From Pyrodictium delaneyi (GTDB lineage: Archaea; Thermoproteota; Thermoprotei_A; Sulfolobales; Pyrodictiaceae): DNA of 32,000 bases. The translations under genes and the position numbers were made by a program. Numbering within the stretch: the stretch's first letter is position 1; each line of letters begins with the position of its first letter. This document shows positions 4,708-20,345 of the stretch, in pieces. Below the pieces are notes generated by a model. It ran no database searches and was not told the DNA's origin. It worked only from the letters and a program-made list of their open reading frames with translations. Location: assembly GCF_001412615.1 (NCBI RefSeq), contig NZ_CP013011.1:840001-872000 (forward strand). The letters are read 5' to 3'.

Positions 4708-4886
4708 AGCCCCTAGTTAGTTCCAAGGCCCAGGCCAGGGCAAAAAGCTGCCTCAGACTATCCAGAGCCCACGCACAATAGGCGAACACTCCACGAGCAT
4801 AACCTCCTGGACAAATCCCCGCCAAGGAGCCGCCTGGGGTCACTCAGTCCCCAGGCACCCCTGCACCCCTGTAGCCCCTGGAGCAC

Positions 4887-5609
4887 CTACACAGTACCAG
4901 CCTCCTCTCTTGCCGCGGCTTGGCCGCGAAGCCTCCTAGCCCCCAGCACCCCGAGCAGGGAGCCAGCGAGCCACAGGGCGTCGCCCAGTAGGGCCGAGGA
5001 GAAGCCCAGAGGGAGCCCAGCAAGCCAGAGGACTATACCGGCCCTTATCGGGCTGCCGCCGGGCTCGCCTCCCAGCCTCCACAGCGCCACAGTCTCCAGA
5101 GCCAGTCCGGCAAAGCCAGCCACGATACCGATAAGAGTCAACGCGAGCGCGGCGAACACGAACACGCCGGCAAAGACGCCGGCAGCAGAGGCTACACAGC
5201 CGGGGGAGGCAGCACACGACGCAGCCAAGACGAGCATGGCGCCGGCCAGCGTCACCGAGGCCAGACCAGCAATGACGAGCTTAGCGCCTGTCAGCCCCAG
5301 GCTGTAGCCCGGCCGGTAGAGCCTCAGCAAGCCGAACCCCTTCCAGAGAAAGTAGACCGGCAAAGCATAGACAGCCAGCAGCGCGAAACCCGCGAGAAAC
5401 ATCTCTAGGAGCGGCGGGTTCCCAGACGGCGCCCCCGGCCCCGGGGCCAGCAGGTCGCCCACGACAGCGCCTACAGCCCGGTGGGCGAGGCCCAGCCCGA
5501 GGCTCGCCAGGAAGTACTGGTACACGTAGCCGGCGCCCCGCCGGAGAAGCCCAGGCTCCCCAGCACCACCGGTAGGGCCGGTATCCACGGCGGGCAGCCC
5601 CAGCACCAT
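4887..5609 (-). CDS. Multi-pass membrane protein, function unknown
   Basis: Several long hydrophobic Ala/Leu/Gly/Val segments. TATA-like aaatataaata at about 5623-5633, roughly 20 nt upstream of the ATG on the coding strand. High GC makes the ORF call less certain. Confidence 0.5.
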   Translation of the reverse strand: MVLGLPAVDTGPTGGAGEPGLLRRGAGYVYQYFLASLGLGLAHRAVGAVVGDLLAPGPGAPSGNPPLLEMFLAGFALLAVYALPVYFLWKGFGLLRLYRPGYSLGLTGAKLVIAGLASVTLAGAMLVLAASCAASPGCVASAAGVFAGVFVFAALALTLIGIVAGFAGLALETVALWRLGGEPGGSPIRAGIVLWLAGLPLGFSSALLGDALWLAGSLLGVLGARRLRGQAAAREEAGTV

Positions 5610-5889
5610 ACACGCCAGCAGGAAATATAAATATCAACAGCATATAGGGTAGCGCTGGCTCTTAGAGCCTAGGCGCTATCTGGCAGATTCTCCACCCGGG
5701 GGGACATCGGTAGGGTGTAGAGAAGTATTGTTATGGCTGTATAGCCGGCCGCCACACTGGTGACAACAGTCAGCCTAATCTTCTAGGTACGCCTCTATAG
5801 GCTAGTCTTCGTCTGCGCTCCTCGCCTCTCCAGGGCGGTGCCTAATTTTAGCGGCGCCTAGTGGGTAGGTAGAGTATGGTGGGACCACA

Positions 5890-6147
5890 GTGAGTAGTGG
5901 GACGATAGTCCGGCTTGACTCTAAGGGCCGGGTCACCCTACCCCTAGAGGTTAGGAGGAAGCTGGGGCTCCGTGAGGGCTCCCAGCTCCGGGTCCTCGTC
6001 GACGAGGAGAAGGGGAGGATAATAATCGAGAAAGCAGAGTCCATAGCCGAGAGGTACTACGGCGTATTCAGGCCCCGTAGACGCGTAGACGACGTAGAGG
6101 AGGAGATAGAGGAGGCGGTGTACAGGGCTTGGCTAGGAGATACATAG
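5890..6147 (+). CDS. vapB: AbrB/SpoVT-fold antitoxin (VapB-like)
   Basis: GTG start. LDSKGRVTLPLEVRRKLGLREGSQLRVLVDEE is the swapped-hairpin AbrB/MazE motif. Overlaps the downstream PIN gene by 19 nt. Confidence 0.75.
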   Translation: MSSGTIVRLDSKGRVTLPLEVRRKLGLREGSQLRVLVDEEKGRIIIEKAESIAERYYGVFRPRRRVDDVEEEIEEAVYRAWLGDT

Positions 6148-6545
6148 ACGTAAACATCCTCGTCTACTGGCTCACCGGGCACCCAGAGTACGGCAGAAAA
6201 GCCCTAGAGTGGGTGAAGAGAGTAGAAGCCGCCACAAGAGGCACATACATAACAGCAAGCATCACCATCTACGAGCTCATAGTAGTCCTCGCACGGCTCA
6301 CCGGGAGAAAACTCAGCGACAAGAGCCTCGTAGACAAGGTCCTCGAGGCGCTCAGCGGGCTACAGGGGCTACGAGTAGTCGAGACAACACAGCAAGACTA
6401 CCTAGACGCAGCCCGCTACATGGAGGCCTACAGCCTAGACCTCGAAGACGCCCTACACCTAGCCGTCGCGCTACGACACAAAGCCGCCGAGATAGTGTCA
6501 AACGACACCGACTTCGACAAGACACCCCTCAAGCGCGTCTTCTAG
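6129..6545 (+). CDS. vapC: PIN-domain ribonuclease toxin (VapC-like)
   Basis: TTG start. The four acidic PIN positions are visible: YIDVN..., TIYELIVV, DLEDALHLA, SNDTDFDK. Confidence 0.75.
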   Translation: MARRYIDVNILVYWLTGHPEYGRKALEWVKRVEAATRGTYITASITIYELIVVLARLTGRKLSDKSLVDKVLEALSGLQGLRVVETTQQDYLDAARYMEAYSLDLEDALHLAVALRHKAAEIVSNDTDFDKTPLKRVF

Positions 6546-6753
6546 ACCGCAAGCCGGAAGGGCACACCCCGATACCCCTGGGGCCTGGCTATCAGCTGTG
6601 TCTTGCGGGTATAGTAGTCTGTCAGCCTTGCTGTCCTTGCCCGGGCTAGTGTCTGCCTCACACTCTCTATTACCTCAAGAAGCATGTGTTTATGCAGTTG
6701 TCCTCATAGCCATAGAGTATAGGGGCTCCCTGAGCAGCCTACAGGAGGAGACC

Positions 6754-6915
6754 GTGGCCAAGGCTATCTACGAGAAGGGCGTGCTAAGGCCCCTCCAGGA
6801 TCTCGGCCTCCAGGAGGGGGAGGAGGTCGAGATAATCGTCCGCCGGAGGCCCAGCCTCAGGCAGGAGGACGTCGACCGGGTTATCGAGGAGATAGATGAT
6901 GAAGGTATTCTTTGA
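6754..6915 (+). CDS. Small antitoxin-family protein (AF2212/DUF104-like)
   Basis: Conserved core AKAIYEKGVLRPLQDLGLQEGEEVEIIV. It is paralogous to the 7873..8115 and 31473..31676 products. A GTG at 6754 preceded by aggaggag is a better start than the track start at 6598, whose extension is hydrophobic/low-complexity and absent from the paralogs. Confidence 0.65.
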   Translation: MAKAIYEKGVLRPLQDLGLQEGEEVEIIVRRRPSLRQEDVDRVIEEIDDEGIL

Positions 6916-7330
6916 CTCCAACGTCCTCCTCGGTGCCTCGCCGGCGCCAGGGAGGCCAAGAAGCTTGTAGATATGGCTGAGCACGGCGAATGGGAGGACT
7001 ATGTGAACGATATCGTGGTCAGCGAAGTCGTCTACGGCTACCCGAGACTAGCCCTCAACGTCTCCAGGTACAAGCCCTAGAGACTACATAGCCAAGCACA
7101 TAGACGTGGTCGAGGAGCTGCTAGAGCAGGACGTCTACCCACTATTCACGAGCTTCAGGCACATCCCGACCAATGCTGGAGTAGACATGATAGTAGAGTA
7201 CATGACCAGCTACAGGCTATTGCCAAACGACGCGCTGATAGCCGCGACGTGCCGGAGCCACGGTATAGAGGCGATAGCCACCTTCGACGAGGACTTCAAG
7301 CAGATACCATGGCTCAAGGTGATACCATAG
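6896..7330 (+). pseudogene. vapC: PIN-domain toxin gene disrupted by two frameshifts
   Basis: ATG 6896/6899 gives MMKVFFDSNVLL..., stopping at TAG 6968-6970. The homologous sequence continues in another frame (CLAGAREAKKLVDMAEHGEWEDYVNDIVVSEVVYGYPRLALNVSRYKP*, stop 7078). It then returns to the first frame (RDYIAKHIDVVEELLEQ...LPNDALIAATCRSHGIEAIATFDEDFKQIPWLKVIP, end 7330). The C-terminus parallels the intact paralog at 7408..7854 (...FDGDFRRVPWLKVIS). Confidence 0.65.
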
Positions 7331-7407
7331 CCCGGGGGAGACACCCCGGAGCCAGCACGTATCTCTGCTCCGCGCCTCGGCGAGGAGCCTCAGGGAGCAA
7401 GCTTGTT

Positions 7408-7854
7408 TCACGAGATTACCTTCAGCCACGGCACCCTCCTGAAGTCCCCGTCAAACGTCAGGATAGTGTCTATGCCGTAGTGCCTACATGTAAGGGCTAT
7501 TATAGCGTCGCTTGGCGTCAGATTATAGTTTTTCATGACCTCTAGTAGTTCGCTTGGCTCTGCATGATCTCTTAGAACCGTAATACCGAGTTCCCGGAGC
7601 ATTTCCACGTATTCCTCTAGCTTATCAGCTGCGAAGCCCAGCCCCTTCTCTCTTATATGCTCCTTCAGCCTGTCAAGCCTCCTAATCCCCAGCCTGACCC
7701 TGGCTAGACGACGTATTATGACGAACTCGACCTCATTGATTATCCCTACTGTCACTGCTAAGTCCGGGTGAGATGCTAGAAGGAGCTCTGCTTCATCGGC
7801 TCTCTCCCCTTCAAGCAGGTAGTGTATGAATACGTTCGAGTCAACCAGCTTCAA
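7408..7854 (-). CDS. vapC: PIN-domain toxin (VapC-like), intact
   Basis: MKLVDSNVFIHYLL, INEVEFVI, TPSDAIIALT and LTFDGDFRRV supply the acidic PIN residues. An antitoxin-like ORF sits 18 nt upstream on the same strand. Confidence 0.75.
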   Translation of the reverse strand: MKLVDSNVFIHYLLEGERADEAELLLASHPDLAVTVGIINEVEFVIIRRLARVRLGIRRLDRLKEHIREKGLGFAADKLEEYVEMLRELGITVLRDHAEPSELLEVMKNYNLTPSDAIIALTCRHYGIDTILTFDGDFRRVPWLKVIS

Positions 7855-7872
7855 CCCTTACCCCCACGGAGC

Positions 7873-8115
7873 CTAGAGGCGCTCGAACTCCGCCTCAAGC
7901 AGTAGCTCCTCTATCTCCTCCCTACTCGCCCTGCCAAGCATCCCCCTATACTTCCGTAGACGTCTAACCCTATCCTCAAACCTCTCCAGGCGGACGAAAA
8001 CCTCCTCACCCTCTTCCAGGTCCACATCGTCTAGCAGCTTGAGGACACCACCCTCATACCTAGCCCTTACAACCCTGGACAAGGCCAGCCCACCCAAACC
8101 AGTTGACCAGTGCAT
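7873..8115 (-). CDS. Small antitoxin-family protein (AF2212/DUF104-like)
   Basis: SRVVRARYEGGVLKLLDDVDLEEGEEVFVRLE...RKYRGMLG parallels MARIVRARYEKGVLRPLEDLGLDEGEEVIIRV...RKYKGVLG at 31473. By analogy the real start is probably the TTG at 8082. Confidence 0.65.
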   Translation of the reverse strand: MHWSTGLGGLALSRVVRARYEGGVLKLLDDVDLEEGEEVFVRLERFEDRVRRLRKYRGMLGRASREEIEELLLEAEFERL

Positions 8116-8338
8116 GCCCTAATTACCACTCGCTACTAGACCCCCTAGCGCTACGCAGCAGTAGTTCTAGACGCCAACGCGGCCATAGCAGCTCTGGTAA
8201 AAAGGGGCAACGATTCAACCGCTACACCGCATCCCCCGGCTCCAAGGACTCTACCCCTCCCCCTACCCCAGAAAACTCGGCCCTCCGGCAGCCCCGCACT
8301 CCGTAGTAGCCTCACATCCCTGAACCCTAGGCCTGGGC

Positions 8339-9148
8339 TTAGGGCCCAAGGCCCAGGTACTCTTGGAGCGAATGTATTATCCTATCTGGATTGGCTACGT
8401 TCTCTTCTATGATCTCGTGTATCTTATGCCTTAGCTGCCAGTGGGAGAGACTCATAGAGTACTCGAGCGCGGCATAGCCGCCGTACTCCAGGATTACGCG
8501 GGCCAGCCCCGTAGAGGTAAACACCTTACCCACGACTTTGAACGCGAGGCCATATGTAGGGTCGAGCCGTATAAGCACAATGTCGAGCACCAGCCTCGTC
8601 AAGTTCCCGTAAAACCAGCTCCACGCCCAGCCACTATCATACATCAGTACTAGATTTGCCGCTCTCACCAGACCGTTATAGTCCCTCGCCAAGCCGCACA
8701 GGGTCTGCAAGGCCTCCACGGAGCCACGTCCAGCAGAGTCCATCAGCCCCCTAATCTCCCGGTAAGACAGGTAGGGCAAGCGTACACCCAGATCCTTCTC
8801 CAGGCCCTCTACCAGATTCCTATACTCGTTCAAAACCTCGTAAACCCTATCATAGCCGCCCCCGGCAGCAGCGATAGCATCATGCATACTACACTCCGGC
8901 AGCAACGGCAGCCCCGCAAAACCACTCGCCAGCACACGTGTTACCCCATCATACCCATAGCGGGACGCAGCGCTGTAAACCGACCCAATATAATACGACA
9001 GGGCACTGCCATAGCTATGCTGACCCAGAACCAGATCCCTAACCGAGTTAACTAGAGTAGCCTGGCTATCAACTATCATAATTGTTGTAACTATTACCAG
9101 AACCAGCACCAGAAAGACCATGAGTACCAGCAGCACATTACTACTCAT
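8339..9148 (-). CDS. N-terminally membrane-anchored hypothetical protein
   Basis: One strongly hydrophobic N-terminal segment (VLLVLMVFLVLVLVIVTTIMIV), then about 240 aa with no motif I recognise. G+C is intermediate compared with the flanks. Confidence 0.5.
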   Translation of the reverse strand: MSSNVLLVLMVFLVLVLVIVTTIMIVDSQATLVNSVRDLVLGQHSYGSALSYYIGSVYSAASRYGYDGVTRVLASGFAGLPLLPECSMHDAIAAAGGGYDRVYEVLNEYRNLVEGLEKDLGVRLPYLSYREIRGLMDSAGRGSVEALQTLCGLARDYNGLVRAANLVLMYDSGWAWSWFYGNLTRLVLDIVLIRLDPTYGLAFKVVGKVFTSTGLARVILEYGGYAALEYSMSLSHWQLRHKIHEIIEENVANPDRIIHSLQEYLGLGP

Positions 9149-9320
9149 CTACAATGCCCCATACGTAGCAGAACATCAGTATTACCATAACTATGCTACT
9201 AACTACCTTCAAACTAGAAGCCAGAAATCAACATCCTTGGCCTTCTACAAGACACAACCCCTAATGGAGGAATCCACAGAGGATAGGCCCAGAGCCAGCG
9301 GCCCAGGGGCTAAGCAGCAG

Positions 9321-10445
9321 CTACCTGCGGCTCCGGAGGACTAGTAGGTAGAGCCTCCTGCCCGGCCGGAACCTCTCGCCGAGCGGCTTCGTCTCCGCTT
9401 GTAGGCCGTACTCCCTGGCTAGCCTCGCGAGGGCCTCGTGGACCGGGATGTATGCTCCGCCGAGTATGCTGTCCCCGATGGTGTACCATGCCTGCCACTC
9501 TAGCCTCCCGGCTAGAAGCTCGATGTGCCTCTCCATGGCGTGGAAGTACTGGAGGAGGAAGCGGCGGTAGCCGCGGGCCCTGCTCCCCCTTATCCTAGAG
9601 GCTAGCTCGCGGAGCCAGGGATGCCGTGTCTCCTGTTTCCAGGCCCTGGCGGCTGCCTCGCATGCCGGCATCTGTATGCCTCGGAGCCAGCCGAGGTCCT
9701 CGCTGCCGTGGGCCAGGCCGGCCCAGAGTAGCTCGAGCATGGTGTGTCTCACGTAGTCCAGGTTGTTGGCGAAGGGCGGGCTCGTCAGCAGCCCACAGAT
9801 CCTCCCTGGGAGCCACGCGGTGGAGTCACCCCATACGAGGTCCACTGGGCCGCAGAACCGGTGGCCACGGAGGTCCCCGACGGCCCCGCGGAGGGCCTCC
9901 GCGAAGCCCTGGTACACATCGTGCCTTGTGGCCTCTACTGTTCCCCGGCGGAACCTGGGAGCCGGGCTGCGGCGGAGCAGGCTATACTCGCCTGCCACCC
10001 GGCCGAGGACCGCTAGTAGGAGGGGCCTCCAGTCCCGGGGTGCTTCTTCTACGAGGCGGCGGAGGCGGCCGAGAGCAGTGAGCACCTCCCGTGGGTGGTA
10101 CCGTTCTAGCCTGGGGCTCGGCACTAGGGGCTCCAGCTCCTCCACCGAGCCAAGCCGCTCCAGGGTCCAGTTGAGTACCGCGTCGTAGTCGAGGGGCCTG
10201 GTCTTCGCGGCTACGAGGATGAGGCTCCACGGGTCGGCGTCTACGCCTAGGAAGGAGAAGCACCTCTTCTGCGCCTCGACTGCTACCACGCCGCTCCCCA
10301 CGAACGGGTCTACGATGCCCCGGCAGCCCGCCTCCCTCGCGGCCTGCATGAACTCTTCTACGAGGCTTGGGCTGAGCCCGTGCTCGGTGTACACGCCGAT
10401 ACGGTGAACCGCGATACTGCGCCAAGGGTTAGCCAGAGCAGGCAA
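9321..10445 (-). CDS. DNA methyltransferase (amino-MTase; motif I before motif IV; SPPF variant)
   Basis: SAM-binding motif I in IVDPFVGSGVVAVEA. Catalytic motif IV in LLTSPPFANNLDY. Last gene of a four-gene minus-strand run, 22 nt after the endonuclease-like gene. Confidence 0.75.
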   Translation of the reverse strand: MPALANPWRSIAVHRIGVYTEHGLSPSLVEEFMQAAREAGCRGIVDPFVGSGVVAVEAQKRCFSFLGVDADPWSLILVAAKTRPLDYDAVLNWTLERLGSVEELEPLVPSPRLERYHPREVLTALGRLRRLVEEAPRDWRPLLLAVLGRVAGEYSLLRRSPAPRFRRGTVEATRHDVYQGFAEALRGAVGDLRGHRFCGPVDLVWGDSTAWLPGRICGLLTSPPFANNLDYVRHTMLELLWAGLAHGSEDLGWLRGIQMPACEAAARAWKQETRHPWLRELASRIRGSRARGYRRFLLQYFHAMERHIELLAGRLEWQAWYTIGDSILGGAYIPVHEALARLAREYGLQAETKPLGERFRPGRRLYLLVLRSRR

Positions 10446-10467
10446 CCCGGCCCTCCTCTAAGCGCTT

Positions 10468-10827
10468 CTAGAGCCAGTCGTAGTAGCCGTACCTGACTCT
10501 CCGGATCTTCACGCCTAGCTGCCTGGCGAGCCTCTGTGCTGCGGTAGTTATCCCTGTCTCGTAGGAAAGCACTAGCACTGGTATGGCCCTCGCCCTCCCG
10601 GCCTTCCTGGCTAGTTTCTCTACCTCGCTCCTGGTCACAGGTTTCGAGGGGCGGTGCTTGACCTCGAACACGTACCTCCTCCCCGCGTGCCACGCCACTA
10701 TGTCTATCTCCCCGTAGCTCCTAACGATATTCCTCTCTATGCCATAGTAGCCCTTGGACTCTAGCAGCCTGGCCACGAAGGACTCGTAGCCGCTCCCGCG
10801 CCCCCTCCGGCGGGGCATTCCCGCCAC
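10468..10827 (-). CDS. Small PD-(D/E)xK endonuclease (Mrr-cat-like; Hjc-like fold not excluded)
   Basis: FVARLLESKGYY...GEIDIVAWHAGRRYVFEVKHR...VTRSEVEKLARKA...IPVLVLSYETGITTAAQRLARQLGVKI fits the D-x(12)-ExK core and the overall pattern of Mrr-type restriction endonuclease catalytic domains. Confidence 0.6.
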   Translation of the reverse strand: MAGMPRRRGRGSGYESFVARLLESKGYYGIERNIVRSYGEIDIVAWHAGRRYVFEVKHRPSKPVTRSEVEKLARKAGRARAIPVLVLSYETGITTAAQRLARQLGVKIRRVRYGYYDWL

Positions 10828-10893
10828 CCTAGGGGGAGCTGAAGCACGGACATGCAGCCGTGGCCCTGGGAGATGCTCGCTGAGGGGAGTGTG

Positions 10894-12474
10894 CTAGGCT
10901 AGCCTTACCCGGACGGCGTCTCCCTGCTCGGCTAGCTCCTGCATCTTCTGGGCTGTACGTGATAGCCTACGGCCAGCCCAGCTGCCCCCAGCCCTGGCGA
11001 GTTTGCCTACGGCGCCTATGACGACCATTAGCTTGTGGTGGCGGCTGAGCTGGACGTTCAGCACCTGGGGCTCGTTGTAGTACATTGTCTGGTAGAAGTT
11101 GTCGTCTACCCAGGGGTCGTAGTCGCTGCGCCCGCTATACTCCTTGCCGAGTATCGCCACTACTGCGTCTGCCTCGCCGCCTATAACGGCCTGGACCGTG
11201 GCTGAGAGCGGCGGGTCGAAGTACTGGCCATAGTTGTGCTTGAAGTTGAAGGCTACGTTGGTGACTATGTCGCTGTACGGGGCTATAACCATCGTAGAGG
11301 GCTCCGCGTAGCTCCCCAGCTCGCGGGCAGCCTTGGCGTAGGCCTGTAGTATGAGGGAGACCTCGAGCCCCAGTTTGGTCCTCCTCTTGTCATAGGTGGA
11401 CGCCGTCCTCGAGGCGCTGAACTCGCCTGTCTCGACTACTACGAGGGGCTTCTCCGAGGTGACGGCCTCGTACACCGCGTTGAAGAGCCTGTCCAGCTCG
11501 GTACTCCAGGAGACAGTGCTGCGCAGCATCCGCTCTACCCGGGTCCTCGCGTCCTCGAATAGCTCGCGGAGGCTGCGTAGCCTCCAGTGTGCCGGCTCGT
11601 AGGCGCGTAGCCTGTCGTCGTAGAACCCGTGGCTTATCGGCTGCTCGCTGGGCCCGGGGAGCCTGTACGTGGTGTCGAGCATCACGAAGTTGTCGCGCTC
11701 TAGGCCGTGCTGGCGCACCAGGTGCATGACCTTGTTCATCAGTAGGCTTACCCTCTGGGCGCGGAACGCCTCCGGTACCGTTATCGCCTGCTCCGGGTCG
11801 CCGAGGGCGACGAGCGAGGCCGGGTAGTCGCTGTACCTCATTATAGCGTCGGCTATGCTTATGAAGGCCCGGTAGTAGGGGCTCTTACTAGCCTCGTCCA
11901 CCACCAGGTGTATCCTGCCCGGCTTGCTCGTGAAGCGGCCGCTCACCCTCTGGTACTCCGTCGCGAACACTATCCGGACCACGCTGGGGTCCACGGGCCC
12001 GTAGACCATGCTCTTCAGCGCCGTCTCGCTCGGCGGGCTCTCGTCCACCCCCTTTGCCCGGAACACCTTCTCGCAGTCCCTGACCGTCACCTTGGAGCCG
12101 TAGACGCGGGCACGGTCCACGATGTCCCGGAGCGTGTAGCCCCGTGCTAGGAGCGCGGCAGCAACCCTCTCAAACGCCTGCGCAGCCAGGTGGTTCGTAG
12201 GGGCAACATATATCACCAGCTCATCCAGCATATCGTCAAGCATGTCGGCCATGTGGTCGTGCACGAAGCTCTCGACTACGCTAGTCTTGCCCGTCCCCGG
12301 CGGCCCCTGGACGCCGCCCAGCGGCGCCTTAGCCGAGCCCTTCATCACCCGGACCAGTATGTCCACCGCCTTCTGCTGGCTACTGTTCAGCCGGAGGACG
12401 CGCCTACCAGACCTAGCCTCCTCGGCGCGCCTCCACGCCTCGGCGAGCAGCTCGCAGACATTGTAGCGGGCCAT
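10894..12474 (-). CDS. Superfamily 1B helicase (Upf1/Dna2-like, AAA_11/AAA_12 type)
   Basis: Full motif set present. Q: LNSSQQKAV. I: GPPGTGKT. Ia: VAPTNHLAAQAFERV. II: LVVDEASK. III: LVALGDPEQ. IV: LDTTYRLPGP. V: TVQAVIGGEADAVV. VI: LNVQLSRHHKLMVVIG. Confidence 0.8.
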   Translation of the reverse strand: MARYNVCELLAEAWRRAEEARSGRRVLRLNSSQQKAVDILVRVMKGSAKAPLGGVQGPPGTGKTSVVESFVHDHMADMLDDMLDELVIYVAPTNHLAAQAFERVAAALLARGYTLRDIVDRARVYGSKVTVRDCEKVFRAKGVDESPPSETALKSMVYGPVDPSVVRIVFATEYQRVSGRFTSKPGRIHLVVDEASKSPYYRAFISIADAIMRYSDYPASLVALGDPEQAITVPEAFRAQRVSLLMNKVMHLVRQHGLERDNFVMLDTTYRLPGPSEQPISHGFYDDRLRAYEPAHWRLRSLRELFEDARTRVERMLRSTVSWSTELDRLFNAVYEAVTSEKPLVVVETGEFSASRTASTYDKRRTKLGLEVSLILQAYAKAARELGSYAEPSTMVIAPYSDIVTNVAFNFKHNYGQYFDPPLSATVQAVIGGEADAVVAILGKEYSGRSDYDPWVDDNFYQTMYYNEPQVLNVQLSRHHKLMVVIGAVGKLARAGGSWAGRRLSRTAQKMQELAEQGDAVRVRLA

Positions 12475-12494
12475 CCCCGGCGCACCCCGTCGGG

Positions 12495-14342
12495 CTATAT
12501 CCTCACGCCGCCGAAGAGCAGGGCTAGCATGTCCTCGGCCTCCAGCTGCTCCTCCCTACCCAGCCTCTCCAGCGCCTCAGCACCCCTCCTCACAGTGCCC
12601 ATTTCCGCCGCCGTTACGCCCAGCAGCTCTAGCTGGGTCAGCTCCACGTTCACCTCGAGCGCCACAACGCCGTGGAACACTTCGGGGCTCGTCTCGGCCA
12701 GGTGCTCGAGCAGCGCCGGGTATATCCTGGAGAGCTTGTTGGCAGGCGCGACCCTCACGTAGACCCGGTCGGCCCCCTCGTCGTACTCCACGCTGCTGAC
12801 AGAGCCGTGGAAGCTTGCCCGGAGAAGCGGGTCACGTACATGCCCCTCGTTGAGGAACACCGCCGCCGGCTTGCCCTCCCGCAGGGTGAAGAGGTGCATG
12901 TTCTCCCGCTCCCAGCGGAGCGGCGGCCTCGCCAGCACCAGCTCGCCGCCATCAACCCAGGCCTCGTCGAACAGGTCCACCCTGGAGCCGTCGGGCAGCA
13001 CCCGGTTGACCAGCCTGCCGCGTATCCAGTCCATGCCGCTGCCGTACCTCAGTGCTAGGTCCCTGAAGTGCTTGTACGGGGCGAGCGCGTTCTCGCGGTG
13101 AGCGTATATCGCGAACCGGGCCCTCCAGGACTCGCTGCGGAAGGCCTTGAAGTCCGCGTAGCGGGGGTCCCGGCCGCTACTGAGGTAGTAGACGCAGGCC
13201 TCCCGGACGTTGTCCGGGCACAGCTTGCAGGGCCAGCGGAGCTCCTCGCGCAGCGGGCTACCCATGGGGAGCCGTACCCTGTCCCCGTCCAGCACCAGCT
13301 CGGGGACGAGGCGGAACACCGGCCTCCTCTTACCGCCCCTAGTCACGACGCTGCATATCTCCTCCACGTTGCGCGCATACTTGAGGTGCTCCCGCAGGTC
13401 GGTGACAGAGAGCGTGAGGTGCTCCGCCGCCAGCACCAGCCCCGCCATGAGCCTCCGCAGCTCGTGGTAGTCGCAGCCGCCCCGCCCGCCGATGCACAGC
13501 CGGGGGTGCTTCACGTAGACCCTCGAAGCCCTCCCCGTAGGCGAGGGCCTCACAACACCAGGCACGACGCGGGCGCCCCTGCCGTCCGGCCCCTCCCCGA
13601 GCACGGCGGAGACGTAGCTCTCGAACCCGTCCCCGGCGAGGCCCAGCCGCTCCGCCTCAAGCATAGCGTAGACATACGCCTGCGCTATGTCCACCTTGGT
13701 GACCTGGGCCGTCCTCCCCTCCCCAGGGCTATACGACTTCCACTCGATCACCGCAGCGTACCTGCCCACCGGGTCCTCCACGACAACATCGGCGACCCCC
13801 CAGACGTGGAGACGATAGCTCATAAACTGGTGCTCAGCAAGCACCCGGCTCCTCGCAAGAGCCTCCTCCGCCTCATCGCCCGCCAGAGCACGGAACGCAG
13901 TCTCCACGAACTCCACGCCAGCCCGGGCAAGCTCCTCCGAGGTCCGGATTATCTCGTCCTCCCGCGACTGGTCAATCTTCTCAACATCAAGAACCCCATC
14001 AGACTTAAGCCGGCCAAACGCCTCCTCCACAAGCCCACCGTAGTCGACACTACCCCCGCCCACATGCTCCCGCAGCGCCCGGGGAAACACCAGGGCAAGA
14101 ACCAGGTGGACAGCCTCACCCTTACCAGGCAGCACCGAGTGATAGAACCCACGAACACCCATCGTCTCCCCGAGACGCGCCATAAACACGCACTGCGCAG
14201 CAGCAGTAGCAACACTCCGGGCCTTCACAAGGTGCGCAGTAGCCCCGAGAAGACGGCCACCATCCTCCCCACAGCCAGGCCGACCGGTCGCCTCCACAAA
14301 GAACCTCTCAACAAGCAAGACACGAGGCCCCATATAGCACAC
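12495..14342 (-). CDS. RecB/Cas4-like PD-(D/E)xK nuclease-domain protein with Cys cluster and C-terminal uncharacterised domain
   Basis: HVWGVADVVVED...AAVIEWKSY...VDIAQAYVYAML gives D / ExK / QxxxY in the order typical of RecB-family (Cas4, AddB, Dna2) nucleases. Downstream cysteines: CIGGRGGC and WPCKLCPDNVREAC (CxxCx7C). The GTG at 14342 or the ATG at 14333 may be the start. The helicase gene follows after 20 nt. Confidence 0.6.
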   Translation of the reverse strand: MCYMGPRVLLVERFFVEATGRPGCGEDGGRLLGATAHLVKARSVATAAAQCVFMARLGETMGVRGFYHSVLPGKGEAVHLVLALVFPRALREHVGGGSVDYGGLVEEAFGRLKSDGVLDVEKIDQSREDEIIRTSEELARAGVEFVETAFRALAGDEAEEALARSRVLAEHQFMSYRLHVWGVADVVVEDPVGRYAAVIEWKSYSPGEGRTAQVTKVDIAQAYVYAMLEAERLGLAGDGFESYVSAVLGEGPDGRGARVVPGVVRPSPTGRASRVYVKHPRLCIGGRGGCDYHELRRLMAGLVLAAEHLTLSVTDLREHLKYARNVEEICSVVTRGGKRRPVFRLVPELVLDGDRVRLPMGSPLREELRWPCKLCPDNVREACVYYLSSGRDPRYADFKAFRSESWRARFAIYAHRENALAPYKHFRDLALRYGSGMDWIRGRLVNRVLPDGSRVDLFDEAWVDGGELVLARPPLRWERENMHLFTLREGKPAAVFLNEGHVRDPLLRASFHGSVSSVEYDEGADRVYVRVAPANKLSRIYPALLEHLAETSPEVFHGVVALEVNVELTQLELLGVTAAEMGTVRRGAEALERLGREEQLEAEDMLALLFGGVRI

Positions 14343-14484
14343 GCCGCGCCATAAAACCCAGTATTAAATACAGCGCAACAACACATCTACACAACAAGCC
14401 AAAACACCCCGGCCACCGGCTACCAAGAAACGCAGAACATATATAACAATCAAGACCCACCGCGGGCACAAGGGCAACAACACC
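14343..14484. promoter_or_regulatory. Divergent promoter region between the two arms of the methylase/ATPase/nuclease locus
   Basis: TATA-like attaaata (about 14363-14371) sits about 20-30 nt from the minus-strand start. acatatataac (about 14437-14447) sits about 40 nt upstream of the TTG at 14485. The + strand is extremely C+A-rich. A 10-bp direct repeat GCAACAACAC occurs at 14375-14384 and 14474-14483. Confidence 0.45.
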
Positions 14485-17139
14485 TTGGAGCCGCTCATAG
14501 CACACTACTACCCAACCAAAGAAGCCGGAGAAGAGTCACAAAGAGAACGAGGGACAAGAATACCGCCACCGCTCTTCTATCTCCATCTCTGGTGGGCGCG
14601 CCGCCCCCTAGCAGCAAGTCGCGCCACAGTCGCAGCCCTCGCAGTAGACACCAACAAGCCACCCGACAAGAGGTTCGTAGAAGAGCTCCTCCAAGCCATC
14701 AAGCTCGTGCCAGGGCTCCCCCGGCCAGCGTACAACTACAGCCCGGACCGGGAATGGATAGCCAGGCACAGCCGCGTAAAGGAGGCCACGCTCCTAGACC
14801 CCTTCGCCGGGGGCGGTAGCATCCCCCTCGAAGCCCTCCGCCTAGGATTCAAGAAGGTAGTGGCAGTCGAGTACAACCCCGTAGCCTACATCATACTCAA
14901 AGCAACCCTCGAGTACCCCCTCCGCTACGGCAAGAAGCTGGTAAAAGACGTAGAGTACTGGGCCAAGTGGCTAGTAGAGAACGTCCGCCGCGAGCTAGCC
15001 CCCTACTACCCACCACACCCCAAGGGACGACCCACAAACTACATCTGGGTAAGAGTCTACACATGCCCCGACGGCAAAAAGGTACCAAGCCTCAGCAACC
15101 CCATACTCTCAAAAGACAACAAGATAGCGCTAAAGCTGGAAGGCTTCGACGAGGAAGGCAACCCAATACTAAGGGTAGTAAATGTAAACGATGTAAGTAA
15201 GGCTAAGGAGCAGTACGCCACTATACGCCGCAAGAAGCTACGCTGCCCCACAGCCACCCTCGACTCCAAGGAGCTCCAACGCCAGTACCAAGAAGCCATG
15301 AAGCAGTGGGAGGAAGAAGGACGCTACGGCTACCACCCAGCAGTCCTAGCAGCCGTCAAGCTAGAAGACGGCAGCTACGCAGAGCCCACACAAGAGATGA
15401 TAGAAGCATATCGAAAAGCTGAACAGTACCTTCGAGAGCACTGGGACGAGCTGTTAGCGGAAGACCTCATCCCGGCAGAGCAGATTCCCGAGGGCGAGAA
15501 GACCCGCGAAGTACTACTACGCGGCATAGACAAGTTCTACAAACTCTTCAATGCACGCCAGCTGCTAGTCCATGCGATAGTAGTGAAGTACATTAGAGAA
15601 GCCTACCAAGAAATGCTGAACAAGGGCTACGACGAGGACTATGCAAAGGCGGTTGTAACCTATCTTGCTCTCGGTCACGGTAAGCTTTTAGACTATAGCT
15701 CTACTATGACCATGTGGCATATTAAAGGAGTAATAGGTCACACATTTGCTCGTCATGCGTACACATTTGGTAACGACTTTGCCGAAGGCGACATTATTCC
15801 TGGCAATAAGCAGGGGGATCTACTGAGCTGGGTGTTCTTTAGCAATACGGGTATCGTGAAGGCTTTGGAGCGTATTGTTGGCCTCCTCGAGGGTGCTAGC
15901 GGTGAGGTTGAGGTTGTTCTTGGTGATGCTGCTGATCCTGCTACCTATGCTGGAGTCGATGGTATAGACTTTGTTGTTGCTGATCCGCCGTATTACGATA
16001 ATGTGCAGTATGGTGAGCTTAGTGACTTCTTCTATGTCTGGTTTAAGCGTAGCCTTGGCGAGTTGTATCCGGAGGCGTTTGTCTGGGATACTGTGCCTAA
16101 GGATTCTGAGATTGTTGTTAACCGTGCTCGTGGGAGGGATGGGGCGTGGTTTGAGTCGAGGCTTCGGGCGGTGTTTGAGCTTGTGAGGGAGCAGGGTGCT
16201 GGGAGGCTTGCTGTGATGTATGCTCACCGGAGCAGTGAGGGCCTCTACGCGATGTTTGGGGCGCTTCTTGGGGCTGGCTGGAAGCCTGTTGGCGTGTGGG
16301 GCGTTGCTGCGGAGCAGCCTCGTAGCCAGCATATTGTGGGCAAGGCTGCTGCCCGGAGCATGCTTGTCATAGGCGCTGTGCCCCGTAGTGGCGGCTCTGG
16401 GTGTTTCTGGGATGCGCGGCTGCAGCGCCGTGTCGAAGAGGCCGTTGAGGCCGCTGTGAGGGAGACGCTAGGGCTCGGGCTTGGCCTTGTCGACGCGGTC
16501 TTGGCTGGTGTTGGTGCCGCGTTTCGTGTTGCTGGGGAGTGCTGGCCTCTCCAGAGGCTCGAGGGCGGCGTGGTCGGTGTCAGGGAGGTGGTTGACCTTG
16601 CTAGCCGTGTTGCGAGCCGTGCTGTGACCCGGGAGGTGCTGCGGGCTGAGATCGACCCATTGTCGACCATGTACTTCCTCGCCAGGGTCGTGTACGGCGA
16701 GCCGGAGTACGACGAGCTTAGGCGGCTGGGCTATGCTGCTGGGCTGAGCCACGAGGTGTTCATAGAGAGGTTCACCAAGGGATCGAGGACGAGCCGTGGC
16801 CGGAAGGTGTACCCGCTGAAGAGGCTCGACGAGATAGACGCTGTGCTGAGGCCGGGCTCGCTGGTGGAGGCTCTGGCTGTCGCCGTGCGGAGGTTCCTCG
16901 TGGCTGGCGTGGAGGAGGCTTTGGAGGCGCTGCGTGAGGCCGGCTATGGGCTCGACACGGCTGTGTGCCGGTACGTGGAGGCGCTTATGGCTGACAGCGA
17001 GGGCGGCGAGAAGAAGGCGCTTCAGGGTATCTACGCGGCCTGTGTGCAGCGTGGCCTGGCCGGCGGCCGCGGCGGCAGAGGCCCGGGCGAGGGCTCCGGC
17101 GGCCAGCGCACGCTCGTCGAGTTCCTGGGCAGAAGGTAG
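14485..17139 (+). CDS. DUF1156-type DNA methyltransferase (DPPY, probable N6-adenine)
   Basis: N-terminal LHLWWARRPLAASRA is the DUF1156 signature as I recall it. Motif I: LLDPFAGGGSIPLEA. Motif IV: FVVADPPYYDNVQYGELSDFFYVW. TTG start. Confidence 0.8.
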   Translation: MEPLIAHYYPTKEAGEESQRERGTRIPPPLFYLHLWWARRPLAASRATVAALAVDTNKPPDKRFVEELLQAIKLVPGLPRPAYNYSPDREWIARHSRVKEATLLDPFAGGGSIPLEALRLGFKKVVAVEYNPVAYIILKATLEYPLRYGKKLVKDVEYWAKWLVENVRRELAPYYPPHPKGRPTNYIWVRVYTCPDGKKVPSLSNPILSKDNKIALKLEGFDEEGNPILRVVNVNDVSKAKEQYATIRRKKLRCPTATLDSKELQRQYQEAMKQWEEEGRYGYHPAVLAAVKLEDGSYAEPTQEMIEAYRKAEQYLREHWDELLAEDLIPAEQIPEGEKTREVLLRGIDKFYKLFNARQLLVHAIVVKYIREAYQEMLNKGYDEDYAKAVVTYLALGHGKLLDYSSTMTMWHIKGVIGHTFARHAYTFGNDFAEGDIIPGNKQGDLLSWVFFSNTGIVKALERIVGLLEGASGEVEVVLGDAADPATYAGVDGIDFVVADPPYYDNVQYGELSDFFYVWFKRSLGELYPEAFVWDTVPKDSEIVVNRARGRDGAWFESRLRAVFELVREQGAGRLAVMYAHRSSEGLYAMFGALLGAGWKPVGVWGVAAEQPRSQHIVGKAAARSMLVIGAVPRSGGSGCFWDARLQRRVEEAVEAAVRETLGLGLGLVDAVLAGVGAAFRVAGECWPLQRLEGGVVGVREVVDLASRVASRAVTREVLRAEIDPLSTMYFLARVVYGEPEYDELRRLGYAAGLSHEVFIERFTKGSRTSRGRKVYPLKRLDEIDAVLRPGSLVEALAVAVRRFLVAGVEEALEALREAGYGLDTAVCRYVEALMADSEGGEKKALQGIYAACVQRGLAGGRGGRGPGEGSGGQRTLVEFLGRR

Positions 17140-17201: not shown

Positions 17202-20200
17202 TTGGCTGGTGGGCGTGCTGGCTGGGTCCCGTTTGAGGAGATCCGGGAGGGGCATATCACGGATAGTAGCTTCGTGGTGCAGCTCTGGTATGTGCACCGT
17301 GGCTGCCCGGGTGGCGGCTGGAGCTGCGTTGATGAGCGCTACCGTGACCCGGTGAAGTTCTTTGACCGTACCTACTTCTCTGAGGGGCTGCGGCAGGTCC
17401 TCGGCAACGTGGTGCGGAGGCTGGTCTACGGGGGCGAGGGTAACGCTGTTGTGCTCCTGCACACCGGGTTTGGCGGGGGTAAGTCGCACACGCTTCTCTC
17501 GATATACCACGTTGCCCGGGGGCTCGGGGAGGCGGCTAGGAGCCGCCGGCTCCGGGAGTTCCTGCACGAGGTGGGCGTCGAGCCGGGGGAGGCGGGCTTC
17601 CGCTCGGCGGTAGCGGTGTTCGACGGGGCTGCTGTGGACCCGGTGCGGCTACGCGATGTCTATGGGGCGCCTAACGCCTGGGTGTTTATCCTCGAGGAGC
17701 TTGTCCGCTCGGCAGGCGCCAGCGAGCTGGCTAGACGTGTGGCTCGTTACCGGAGGGCTGCGCCGGGCAGCGAGGAGATTGGCGAGATTCTTGCCCGGCT
17801 CGAGGGGGCCGGGGTCAGGCCGGTTATACTCATCGACGAAATAGCGATGTATCTCCGGAACCTGGAGGTGCGTGGCGACGAGGAGGCTCGGCGCGAGGCC
17901 GAGGGCCTTAGGATATTCCTCCACAACCTCGCCGTGGCAGTGTCGAACTCCAGGTACGCTGTGCTGGCTATCGCTACACCGCAGCAGTACGAGGGGGAGT
18001 CCCAGCAGGTGATAGCCACTCTCTCGGACGTGAAGAGGGTAGCCATGCCGACCTCCATTGTGGGCCGGGGCGATGCTGCTGCTGTGCTCCGGGCTGCTCT
18101 CCTAGAGGAGGTGGACGAGGCCGCTGCCGCCGCTGTGGCTGAGAAGTATGCGAGGCTCTACGAGGGGGAGCGGGACCGGTTCCCCGTGGACGCCTCTATG
18201 CCGGAGTACCGGCGGCGGATGGCCTCGAGCTACCCGTTCCACCCGTTCCTGGTGGACGTGCTCTATGGGGAGCTTGCGGAGGTCCCTGGGTTCCAGGGTA
18301 CGCGCGACATACTGCGTATCGTGGCGTGGGCGCTGTACTGGAGGAGCCGGGGCGGCGACACCTACGATATGCTTGTCCTAGGCGACCTGGACGCCACCAG
18401 GAGGGAGATACTAGACGAGCTCCTCACCAGGAACGAGCTCCTGAAGAAGCTCCGCAATGCCGTGTCCTACGACGTGGAGGTCATAGAGGAGATTGACGAG
18501 AAGCTGGCCCGCGAGGGACTGCCACGCGTCGCCTCGCTCACCTACTCGGCCGTACTAGTAAGGAGCGCTGCTGGCAAGCCCTCCCGGCCCGAGGAGGTAG
18601 CGCTGGGCGCCGTCACACCGGTCCGCGGCGTCACTGTGCAGCTCGTCCAGCACATGCTGGAGAGCGAGCTCCTAAGGAAGACCGCGCACCTCCACCGCAT
18701 CGACCGGGGCGGCGAGACACTGTACATGGTCAAGTCCCGCGCCAACATCTACATGCTGGTCCACCGTATAGCGGGCGAGATACTGGCTAGGAGCAGGGAC
18801 CGTGTGCTAGAGAGGCTCCGCAGGGAGATAGGGAAGATAGCGAAGCCCACGGCTGAGTGCAGGATAGTTGTCTGGCCCCGGCACCCCGGCCAGGTGGAGG
18901 ACACGCCGAGGATTAAGCTGGTGCTCCTGGACCCAGAGGAGCCAGCCGTAGCCGCGGGCGGGGGCAGGCTCCTCGGCCTCCTAGAGAGGTTCACCATGTA
19001 CAGCCAGGCAGGCGCCGGAGCCGCCTACCGGAAGCACCGGAACACCGTGCTCTACCTGGTCCCGGATATGAGGCTCTACCAGCAGCTACTCCAGAGCATA
19101 GCCAGGCTCATGGCTGTCGAGAGACTGATGCAGCCAGAGCAGAAGCAGTACTACGGCCTAGAGAAGGCCGACGAGGACGAGCTGAACAGGATGAGGAACG
19201 AGCTGCTGGACGAGATCGCCTCTGACACTGCTGCACTCTACGCGACGCTCTACTACCCGCTCGAAGCCCGGCCCGACGGCAGCGTGGTCTTCGACAAAGC
19301 CGAGCTAGACCCCTCCAAGATCCGGGGCAGCGGCCTCTGGCAGACAGTGCGGGAGAAGCTACGCGAGATAGGCAAACTAGCCACGGACGTGCCCGAGGAG
19401 TACGTGCTAACCGAGATACTAGCCAAGAGGTATAACGCGCTACGCCGCCCACTAGGCGTCGACGAGATAGCCTCAGCGTTCACCGAGGACCCCAGCAGCG
19501 TACTACTCATAGACCCGGAGAAGGTTGTACGGGAGAAGCTAGCCAGCCTCGTAGAGCGCGGCAGACTGGTAGCCCTCACCCCCAGCGGCCCCGTCTGCAT
19601 GAAGAGGCCCGCGCTAGCCAGCAAGGACGTACGCTTCGCGCCCTGCAGCTCCCCAGAGGCCCGCCAGAGCTGCGTAGTGGAGACCGGGGATGAGGGCCTC
19701 GAGTGCCGCCCCAAGCCCCCGCAGGACTGCAGAAGCCCCGTATGGGACACCGAGACCAGAACCTGGAAGTGCACCGAGCAAGCCGAGCCAGGAGAGGAGA
19801 CAGGAGAAACAGAGGAGACCGGCCGAGAGATAGGCAGAGCCGTAGCCGAGCCCCCGAGGCAGCCGGCGAGGCCGTGGACGCTGAGCTATCGGGGCATCAA
19901 CCCGTACCAGCTCCGCGAGGAGCTGCTGAAGACAGACCGGCTAGAGGAGCCCGTGGAGGCCATTAGCCTCCGGCTAGTACTGAGCGGCGGGGTGGACCAG
20001 CAGCTCGTCTCCGGGCTAAAGATATTACTACAGGCCGTGAAGGACATGGCGTCCCGGGGGAGCGGCTACTCCCTAAACGCCCGGGCCGTGGTGAGGTCAG
20101 AGAGCAGGGTATCAAGCGTGACCATAGACGCTGAGACTGCTAGCATAGAGCAGCTCTACAGGATCCTAGACGTAGCTAGGAGCCTGGGAGGCATAGCCGA

Positions 20201-20345
20201 GGTGCGGCTCGACATAGACCTAAGGAGGCGGGAGGGCAAGCCCCTACTACTCCGCGACGTAGCTGACGCGCTGAACCGCAGGATGCTGGCCAAGTACCCC
20301 GGCCTACAGCTAGAGGACGTGTACATAGAGCTCTCACGGGGCTAG
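17202..20345 (+). CDS. DUF499-type large P-loop ATPase (BrxC/PglY-like)
   Basis: N-terminal W-VPFEEI...YRDPVKFFDRTYFSEGLRQVL, followed by Walker A in LLHTGFGGGKSHTLLSIYH and Walker B in VILIDEIAMYL. This order and wording match the DUF499 family. 1047 aa, 62 nt downstream of the methylase gene. Confidence 0.75.
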   Translation: MAGGRAGWVPFEEIREGHITDSSFVVQLWYVHRGCPGGGWSCVDERYRDPVKFFDRTYFSEGLRQVLGNVVRRLVYGGEGNAVVLLHTGFGGGKSHTLLSIYHVARGLGEAARSRRLREFLHEVGVEPGEAGFRSAVAVFDGAAVDPVRLRDVYGAPNAWVFILEELVRSAGASELARRVARYRRAAPGSEEIGEILARLEGAGVRPVILIDEIAMYLRNLEVRGDEEARREAEGLRIFLHNLAVAVSNSRYAVLAIATPQQYEGESQQVIATLSDVKRVAMPTSIVGRGDAAAVLRAALLEEVDEAAAAAVAEKYARLYEGERDRFPVDASMPEYRRRMASSYPFHPFLVDVLYGELAEVPGFQGTRDILRIVAWALYWRSRGGDTYDMLVLGDLDATRREILDELLTRNELLKKLRNAVSYDVEVIEEIDEKLAREGLPRVASLTYSAVLVRSAAGKPSRPEEVALGAVTPVRGVTVQLVQHMLESELLRKTAHLHRIDRGGETLYMVKSRANIYMLVHRIAGEILARSRDRVLERLRREIGKIAKPTAECRIVVWPRHPGQVEDTPRIKLVLLDPEEPAVAAGGGRLLGLLERFTMYSQAGAGAAYRKHRNTVLYLVPDMRLYQQLLQSIARLMAVERLMQPEQKQYYGLEKADEDELNRMRNELLDEIASDTAALYATLYYPLEARPDGSVVFDKAELDPSKIRGSGLWQTVREKLREIGKLATDVPEEYVLTEILAKRYNALRRPLGVDEIASAFTEDPSSVLLIDPEKVVREKLASLVERGRLVALTPSGPVCMKRPALASKDVRFAPCSSPEARQSCVVETGDEGLECRPKPPQDCRSPVWDTETRTWKCTEQAEPGEETGETEETGREIGRAVAEPPRQPARPWTLSYRGINPYQLREELLKTDRLEEPVEAISLRLVLSGGVDQQLVSGLKILLQAVKDMASRGSGYSLNARAVVRSESRVSSVTIDAETASIEQLYRILDVARSLGGIAEVRLDIDLRRREGKPLLLRDVADALNRRMLAKYPGLQLEDVYIELSRG

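Follow-up and report, generated by a model that had tools for sequence, protein, structure and literature searches.

A predicted Fe-S nuclease and an adjacent superfamily 1B helicase encoded beside DNA-modification genes in Pyrodictium delaneyi and other archaea: a candidate two-subunit restriction effector

In a 32,000-nt stretch of the genome of the archaeon Pyrodictium delaneyi (contig NZ_CP013011.1, positions 840,001 to 872,000; hereafter the window), two adjacent genes on the reverse strand encode a nuclease and a helicase, which we call NUC and HEL (Table 1). They are separated by a spacer of 20 nt (12475-12494). Because homologues of NUC open with MLIERFF or MLVERFF, the true start of NUC is probably the TTG codon at 14318, which yields MLVERFF and a protein of 607 amino acids (aa) and lies ~45 nt downstream of a TATTTAATA box. 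On the other side of a 142-bp intergenic region, genes for a DUF1156 methyltransferase and a DUF499 ATPase, 62 nt apart, both read away from NUC. This region holds TATA-like boxes in both directions, TATTTAATA facing NUC and ATATATAAC facing DUF1156, and is a putative shared promoter region. Downstream of HEL and on the same strand, a small Mrr-like endonuclease gene follows after 66 nt and a second methyltransferase gene, MT374, after a further 22 nt; co-transcription of NUC and HEL with these genes is plausible.

Table 1. Features of the NUC-HEL locus and its surroundings. Positions are those of the window, except in the last two rows, which refer to other loci. AF2, AlphaFold2; ORF, open reading frame.
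Feature	Position	Strand	Size or evidence
NUC ORF	12495..14342	(-)	615 aa; translation from sequence
C51, predicted N-terminal 4Fe-4S ligand	14190..14192	(-)	Cys in 70/70 ungapped members
PD-(D/E)xK catalytic core, residues 166-232	13647..13847	(-)	E170, D185, E189, E200-W-K202, Q221xxxY225
C372-x2-C375-x7-C383, predicted C-terminal Fe-S triad	13194..13229	(-)	all three Cys in 75/75
C-terminal helix / six-strand barrel / helix module, residues 393-610	12513..13166	(-)	AF2 secondary structure
HEL ORF	10894..12474	(-)	526 aa
HEL Walker A	12283..12306	(-)	
Divergent intergenic region NUC/DUF1156	14343..14484		142 bp; A/T-rich TATA-like boxes in both directions; sequence read directly
DUF1156 N6-adenine methyltransferase (HmaB/MtsC-like)	14485..17139	(+)	Pfam PF06634 1.1e-12; PADLOC HmaB 1.8e-53
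DUF499 AAA+ ATPase (HmaC/MtsA-like)	17202..20345	(+)	Pfam PF04465 6.7e-25; PADLOC HmaC 9.4e-57
Small Mrr_cat/YraN/Hjc-like PD-(D/E)xK endonuclease	10468..10827	(-)	119 aa; Pfam UPF0102 2.2e-9, Mrr_cat 6.6e-9
MT374, second amino-methyltransferase	9321..10445	(-)	374 aa; PADLOC MTase_II 3.3e-10
PIN-domain protein	7408..7854	(-)	6.6e-16
TumE-family toxin	4044..4439	(-)	Pfam 7e-26; PADLOC PDC-M44B 3e-25
Class I aminoacyl-tRNA synthetase	69..2939		
197-aa ORF	20342..20935	(-)	no family match
314-aa ORF	21127..22071	(-)	no family match
340-aa ORF	22517..23539	(-)	low-GC island; no clear family
598-aa AAA_5 ATPase	23546..25342	(-)	low-GC island
404-aa ORF	25470..26684	(-)	low-GC island; no clear family
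Stygiolobus caldivivus locus (L017)	3736..14621		
Sulfurisphaera ohwakuensis locus (L018)			

NUC is a Cas4/AddB-type PD-(D/E)xK nuclease of the RecB/Cas4 kind. Residues 47-235 match the Pfam family PDDEXK_1 (PF12705) with 27.7 bits against a cut-off of 22 (E value 3.2e-6), and in an alignment of 75 family members E170, D185, E189, an acidic residue at position 200 (E/D), W201, K202, Q221 and Y225 are essentially invariant. In the AlphaFold2 model, built on 28 homologues (predicted local distance difference test, pLDDT, 88.9; predicted template modelling score, pTM, 0.92), the catalytic residues map to strands 166-201 and helix 216-232. When this model was compared with solved structures using Foldseek, weak but coherent matches were obtained to Cas4 (8d3l_I, probability 0.98), AddB, MGME1 and EXO5, with Dna2 absent from the best 50 matches; among viral models, it matched phage Cas4-family exonucleases (E values 6.4e-5 to 2e-3, with a target template modelling (TM) score of 0.52 for the best). 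Because sequence searches of the PDB, both with NUC alone and with the 28-sequence profile, returned no meaningful match, its kinship to Dna2, AddB or Cas4 is drawn from the Pfam match and the fold. No cas genes are present in the window, and among the related loci described below only one (L001) has Cas3 nearby, so that the CRISPR linkage expected of a bona fide Cas4 is lacking.

Exactly four cysteines are invariant in the same alignment, namely C51 and the triad C372, C375 and C383, the latter separated from the QxxxY motif by ~150 inserted residues. The spacing of the triad is CxxCx7C in P. delaneyi NUC and CxxCx5C among more distant members (range x5 to x7). One N-terminal and three C-terminal cysteines form the Fe-S "staple" pattern of Cas4, AddB and Dna2 (PMC5704561), and the four residues of NUC are accordingly placed as predicted 4Fe-4S ligands in this 1+3 pattern. 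The loop directly preceding the triad (367-370) has low pLDDT in the model, consistent with a metal site from which the model leaves out the metal. Within the close clade, two further cysteines (C24 and C330) are conserved; family-wide, they are found in 53/68 and 56/75 members, respectively, and are probably not core Fe-S ligands. A first-pass annotation, made by reading the window without database searches, had described ORFs of 615 and 526 aa lying 20 nt apart, with coordinates that proved exact, and had taken the larger product for a RecB/Cas4-type nuclease on account of D, ExK and QxxxY motifs; these are D185, E200-W-K202 and Q221xxxY225, and the protein indeed lies inside the PD-(D/E)xK superfamily. 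Of the two cysteine clusters that it had singled out, CxxCx7C is the invariant triad, the spacing of which (x2 and x5-7, as a sequence pattern only) agrees with the 1+3 arrangement of a 4Fe-4S site, whereas CIGGRGGC (C283, C290) is retained by just 17/75 and 16/75 members and was rejected as a metal site.

The ~220-aa C-terminal region of NUC, which the same annotation had left as a domain of about 200 aa without assignment, has no Pfam match. In the AlphaFold2 model, it consists of a 41-aa helix (393-433), six β-strands (454-563) and a second helix of 27 aa (569-595). The top match of the whole NUC model among solved structures was senataxin, albeit a weak one (E value 9e-3, probability 0.99, TM-score 0.13, 182 aligned columns, the aligned residue range not being visible), and the next matches were Aquarius and then ferredoxin reductase β-barrels. 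Senataxin and Aquarius are Upf1-like helicases of superfamily 1B (SF1B), a family whose hallmark is a 1B barrel mounted on two stalk helices. Several motifs of the C-terminal region are strongly conserved (R409, RENAL at 416-420, TLREGKP, and ExNVxLTQLEL including E563, T569, E572 and L573), as would fit an interaction surface.

HEL is a bare SF1B motor composed of the RecA-like domains 1A and 2A only. It matches the Pfam families AAA_11, AAA_12 and AAA_19, and all helicase motifs are present and invariant or nearly so across 46 sequences, as the first-pass annotation had recognised in calling them Upf1/Dna2-type: I (GPPGTGKT, 57-64), Ia (YVAPTN), II (DEAS, 193-196), III (GDPxQ), IV (TYR), V (TVQxxIGGE) and VI (NVQLSRH). 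The family profile matches Upf1 (1.8e-12), Sen1, SETX, Aquarius and IGHMBP2, and Foldseek comparison of the AlphaFold2 model (pLDDT 90) placed Dna2 (5eaw_A, 1.2e-13, query TM-score 0.56) and Upf1 (1.3e-13) at the top, followed by IGHMBP2, Sen1 and nsp13. Among the PADLOC defence profiles, HEL matches MkoA (2.3e-15) and, weakly, AbiO and Nhi. In profile alignments, position 23 of HEL corresponds to residue 178 of the Upf1 helicase construct, and to residue 137 when the partner is a conventional 596-aa archaeal Upf1-like helicase; no barrel is present in the HEL model. Thus, HEL starts where the stalk and 1B barrel of Upf1 end, NUC ends in a helix-barrel-helix module, and the two chains are complementary: the stalk and barrel lacking in HEL appear to be carried by NUC. 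With moderate confidence, we infer from the models that the C-terminal module of NUC is the equivalent of the stalk and 1B barrel, provided to HEL in trans. We know of no SF1B helicase described so far with its stalk/barrel accessory domain on a partner protein.

The two genes travel together. We collected 46 loci, of which the 43 found via NUC or HEL homologues, together with the window, correspond to 35 non-redundant groups; the genome and metagenome scans relied on exact peptide patterns and missed the known carriers P. delaneyi and P. occultum, so that locus counts are lower bounds. Wherever downstream sequence is available (~30 groups), the gene directly 3′ of NUC, in the same orientation, is HEL; NUC identity to the P. 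delaneyi protein ranges from 92% down to 25% across paired loci. The start and stop codons of the two genes often overlap, and the identities of NUC and HEL co-vary between loci. In both Staphylothermus hellenicus and Stygiolobus caldivivus, the gene upstream of HEL encodes a NUC homologue of full length (hhalign probability 100%). The NUC family is small, with 27 homologous clusters in 5.8e9 proteins and 99 profile matches in 1.84e9 representatives, and HEL yielded 66 clusters with lengths of 289 to 552 aa. No fused nuclease-helicase was found: the 27 and 66 homologues and the 99 profile matches are all ≤793 aa. The pair is distributed sporadically over Thermoproteota and Archaeoglobi, and searches of IMG/VR with NUC and with HEL retrieved no viral copies.

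The most conserved partners of the pair are the divergently oriented methyltransferase and ATPase genes. Of the 35 groups, 21 have a DUF1156 gene adjoining the pair, and the DUF499 ATPase gene is also there wherever the flank suffices. Among the cultured carriers of this cassette are P. occultum, S. hellenicus and Ferroglobus placidus; further examples come from metagenome-assembled genomes (MAGs) of Hyperthermus, Aeropyrum, Acidilobaceae, Desulfurococcales, Bathyarchaeota and Archaeoglobales. The divergent, putative promoter region of ~100-160 bp is kept across loci from 33% to 92% identity. In the window, the DUF1156 protein, 100% identical to Pyrde_0858, matches the NCBIfam model DUF1156_antiphage with an E value of 4.4e-43, under the model cut-off, and the NCBIfam score of the DUF499 protein likewise falls under the equivalog cut-off of its model. 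A Snf2 helicase is encoded neither in the window nor in any of the related cassettes inspected, and DUF3780 and PglZ genes are likewise absent from both. The ORFs of ≥80 aa that flank the cassette have no Pfam or PADLOC match to the extras specific to type 2 (DUF3780) or type 3 (PglZ plus iSTAND) of the BREX-related systems. A DUF1156 homologue of Thermococcus zilligii (31% identity) adjoins a canonical 1097-aa SNF2+NOV_C protein and a DUF499 ATPase. In an Aeropyrum sp. MAG (L002, 3994-14658; same as L010), the genes for DUF499, DUF1156, NUC, HEL and MT374 stand alone between those for S7/EF-1alpha and S12/NusA/L7Ae/RpoA, a placement within the ribosomal/RNA-polymerase cluster that is characteristic of a mobile cassette which has inserted there. 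In F. placidus DSM 10642 (L046, 3476-14579), a UPF0175/DUF3368 toxin-antitoxin-like pair and a 380-aa gene intervene between NUC and DUF1156, and the protein at the DUF499 position has 977 aa and no recorded Pfam match.

MT374 carries the methyltransferase motifs I (DPFVGSGV) and IV (SPPF), its homologues carry N6_N4_Mtase/MethyltransfD12 domains, and a homologue lies beside HEL in most main-clade loci. The Mrr-like endonuclease gene is present among related loci only in the nearest relatives (L006 and L008/L022), for which reason it was rejected as a core component. In one of them, a Pyrodictiaceae MAG (L008, 10989-11338), it is represented by two overlapping tblastn pieces, probably in different frames, suggesting that it is frameshifted or decaying there, as a dispensable accessory might be. 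Two ORFs near the DUF499 gene are also shared with other loci. The 197-aa ORF overlaps the 3′ end of DUF499 on the opposite strand; its recurrence in the same position, with 78-81% identity, is limited to L006 and L008, the two closest relatives. The 314-aa ORF has a 27%-identical homologue beside the Bathyarchaeota cassettes which carries the Pfam domain Bles03 (PF08939; L004, 14871-15989), and could represent an accessory component of the system.

The pair is not confined to DUF1156 and DUF499. More distant NUC-HEL pairs adjoin DndC-like 3′-phosphoadenosine-5′-phosphosulfate (PAPS) reductase genes (1e-34) in Stygiolobus, Sulfurisphaera, a Vulcanisaeta MAG (L015) and a metagenome (L040), and in the two Sulfolobales loci (L017, L018) an SspD-like gene (1.6e-16) is located on the other flank; these Sulfolobales loci are a candidate phosphorothioate-type modification-restriction system. 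Also encoded beside these distant pairs are a protein of ~570-590 aa (with a KAP-type P-loop NTPase score in L040) and two unknown proteins. In two further loci (L028, L034), the pair and MT374 lie beside Eco57I- or TaqI_C-type methyltransferases. Collectively, a DNA-modification enzyme is directly adjacent to the pair in every informative locus, that is, every locus with enough flanking sequence.

A TumE-family toxin and a PIN-domain protein are encoded near the P. delaneyi cassette, which thus sits in a toxin/defence island, upstream of which lies a class I aminoacyl-tRNA synthetase gene. Beyond the cassette, the segment 22000-27000 is an island of low GC content (35-45% versus 62-67% elsewhere in the window) which looks horizontally acquired; PADLOC gave no support for a McrBC identity of the AAA_5 gene pair that it contains.

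The explanation that we favour, at a probability of roughly 60%, is that NUC and HEL together make up an ATP-driven nuclease-helicase of two obligate subunits, and that this enzyme acts as the effector of restriction in a defence cassette based on DNA modification. Given that the DUF499/DUF1156 core is present and the canonical Snf2 effector is absent from the inspected cassettes, the simplest interpretation is replacement of the effector within a known class of systems, and the P. delaneyi cassette is most likely a DUF499-centred, BREX-related (Hma/MANTIS-like) system with NUC-HEL in place of the usual Snf2 effector. In MANTIS, the DUF499 ATPase loads the methyltransferase, resulting in hemimethylation of asymmetric sites, and restriction requires a helicase-nuclease effector (bioRxiv 10.64898/2026.09.23.753747). 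By analogy, the DUF499 ATPase of P. delaneyi would load the DUF1156 methyltransferase, which would mark the host DNA; the ATPase-methyltransferase complex would then recognise unmarked sites on incoming DNA and recruit or license NUC-HEL, as has been proposed for HmaA and MtsD. The helix-barrel-helix module of NUC would dock on domain 1A of HEL, acting as a Upf1-like stalk and 1B domain and building a Dna2-like layout from two chains, whereupon the SF1B motor would move 5′-3′ along single-stranded DNA (ssDNA) and the Fe-S-stapled Cas4/AddB-type nuclease would cut or degrade the strand, conferring the presumed antiviral activity.

Several observations weigh against this explanation. The 1B reading of the barrel draws on the weak senataxin match, and a profile-profile comparison of NUC with the conventional 596-aa archaeal Upf1-like helicase gave no barrel match. 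Even for MANTIS, the effector was not seen to interact physically with MtsABC, nor was cleavage reconstituted (bioRxiv 10.64898/2026.09.23.753747). The occurrence of the pair without DUF1156 and DUF499 in L028, L034 and the Sulfolobales clade implies that it can act with other partners or alone, the NUC-HEL-MT374 triad could be self-sufficient, and the association statistics derived from pattern scans are not exhaustive.

The last-mentioned triad leads to the best-surviving alternative, according to which NUC, HEL and MT374 make up a self-contained restriction-modification system, comparable to Type III or Type ISP enzymes with motor and nuclease split, and DUF1156-DUF499 is a separate, co-travelling layer. 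The position of MT374 homologues directly beside HEL in most main-clade loci speaks for this arrangement, as does their presence beside HEL in L028, L034 and L023, where the available flanks show no DUF1156, and a precedent has been published in the form of UvrD-Cas4 fusions linked to Mod/Res-type methylases (PMC5704561). However, L001/L007, with ~10 kb of downstream sequence, combine DUF1156, DUF499, NUC and HEL without any MT374 homologue, and so does L009, the contig of which stops ~1.2 kb after HEL. Furthermore, DUF1156-DUF499 pairs would be left without the helicase-nuclease that they need in the published systems, and the shared divergent region, a putative promoter, is conserved over a wide span of identities. 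We therefore regard a self-contained triad as unlikely, if still worth bearing in mind.

Alternatively, the pair could be an autonomous sensor-effector resembling Nhi, Hachiman or Gabija, directed against viral replication or ssDNA intermediates independently of modification and merely clustered with modification systems in defence islands. Its combination with at least three unrelated modification modules speaks for such autonomy, and the PADLOC matches of HEL, to MkoA in particular, are compatible with it. Nuclease-helicase defences of this kind are known, Nhi being set off by the phage replication machinery and single-stranded DNA-binding protein (PMC10732053). Set against this are the absence of any pair lacking a modification gene among the loci with enough flank, and the intimacy of the linkage, which often involves a shared promoter region or overlap. 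The Nhi match of HEL, moreover, covers only ~60 residues (425-486; E value 4e-4), and the single-chain organisation of Nhi is not found here. An effector independent of modification is thus improbable. Finally, a housekeeping end-resection or flap enzyme, that is, an archaeal two-chain counterpart of Dna2 or AddAB in replication or double-strand break repair, would agree with the domain content of the pair, which matches Dna2 and AddB-type enzymes, but is rejected as very improbable in view of the rarity of the NUC family, its patchy distribution among lineages, its residence in defence islands that also hold toxin and CRISPR genes, its constant proximity to modification genes, and its insertion inside the ribosomal/RNA-polymerase gene cluster of one genome.

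The first-pass annotation had likewise preferred defence to replication or repair, and the rarity, patchiness and modification-gene linkage of the pair bear this out; far from being universal in the lineage regardless of methylases, the pair is sporadic. The endonuclease and methyltransferase on which that preference was based are both encoded on the same strand as the pair, but the endonuclease is limited to the closest relatives and the divergent DUF1156 and DUF499 partners had been missed. Its description of the pair as a split Dna2-like machine is fair as far as architecture is concerned, although kinship to Dna2 in particular is not borne out, there being no sequence match, no fused relative and no Dna2 among the best 50 structural matches of NUC.

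Should the favoured explanation be correct, its implications extend beyond P. delaneyi. DUF499/DUF1156 systems are widespread, their restriction step has not been reconstituted in vitro, and according to the published survey all of them employ a Snf2 helicase. The archaeal clade described here indicates that the core responsible for sensing and modification is able to drive a completely different effector, consisting of an SF1B motor and an Fe-S nuclease. The association of the same effector with DndC/SspD-like and Eco57I-type modules argues for a generic, modular hand-off from detection to degradation. A barrel supplied in trans, if confirmed, would offer a clean system for learning how the stalk and barrel control Upf1/Dna2-type motors. 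Pyrodictium delaneyi, P. occultum, Staphylothermus hellenicus, Ferroglobus placidus, Stygiolobus caldivivus and Sulfurisphaera ohwakuensis are cultured hyperthermophiles, the proteins of which should lend themselves to biochemical and structural studies.

Several known systems share individual traits with the NUC-HEL loci. Nhi and the Mokosh protein MkoA also couple an SF1 Upf1-like helicase to a nuclease in defence, but are single-chain or differently organised and lack an Fe-S nuclease; to our knowledge, neither has been reported to depend on DNA modification. The resemblance to Dnd, Ssp and BREX type 4 is restricted to Stygiolobus and Sulfurisphaera, in which DndC-like and SspD-like PAPS-reductase genes flank the pair, whereas the restriction partners DndFGH, SspE, SspFGH and PglZ are absent from the Sulfolobales loci. 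UvrD-Cas4 fusions and pairs of Cas4-like proteins with YprA likewise combine a PDDEXK_1 Cas4-like nuclease with a helicase in methyltransferase-linked predicted defence (Hudaiberdiev et al. 2017, PMC5704561), but their helicases are SF1A UvrD (fused) or SF2 YprA, without a stalk/barrel module and without DUF499 and DUF1156. AddAB and AdnAB are two-subunit helicase-nucleases with the 1+3 cysteine 4Fe-4S staple, and AddB is among the structural matches of NUC; however, SF1A (UvrD-like) scaffolds underlie both AddA and AddB, whereas here the motor is SF1B and NUC has no RecA-like domains.

In terms of architecture, the closest parallel is eukaryotic Dna2 (mouse structures 5EAN/5EAW), the top structural match of HEL, in which a RecB/Cas4-type nuclease with 1+3 cysteines, a stalk/barrel and an SF1B 1A/2A motor follow each other in the same order as the nuclease, the putative stalk/barrel module and the motor of the pair. 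The P. delaneyi elements differ in being distributed over two polypeptides, in the insertion between QxxxY and the cysteine triad, and in a genomic context of defence rather than replication; the OB domain of Dna2 was not identified in the NUC model. It is conceivable, although doubtful, that the pair represents an ancient, defence-dedicated archaeal two-chain form of the Dna2 architecture, with the stalk/1B barrel on the nuclease subunit in trans. Were this so, fusion of the two genes in enzymes of this kind would have given rise to single-chain Dna2-type nuclease-helicases; the cassette would also stand for a fourth type of DUF499-centred system, and NUC-HEL for a portable effector common to methylation- and phosphorothioate-based immunity in hyperthermophiles.

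With respect to gene content, the cassette is closest to Hma, BREX-related (BR) types 1-3, Gao_RL and MANTIS (MtsABCD), which share with it a DUF499 ORC/Cdc6-type AAA+ ATPase gene adjoining that of a DUF1156 N6-adenine methyltransferase, a helicase and a nuclease encoded alongside, and a defence-island setting. DUF499 and DUF1156 together with a helicase make up the Hma system. According to the survey of DUF499-centred systems, every BR system uses a Swi2/Snf2 helicase, which carries a fused PD-(D/E)XK or HKD nuclease in types 1 and 2 and is accompanied by PglZ in type 3; term searches of the same text found no SF1-type, Cas4-like or Dna2-like effector (PMC12839542). Unlike the described types, the P. 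delaneyi cassette has no Snf2, DUF3780 or PglZ; instead, it carries two genes, one for a predicted Fe-S Cas4-type nuclease with a putative stalk/barrel module and one for an SF1B motor, and NUC-HEL loci are usually equipped with a second, small methyltransferase.

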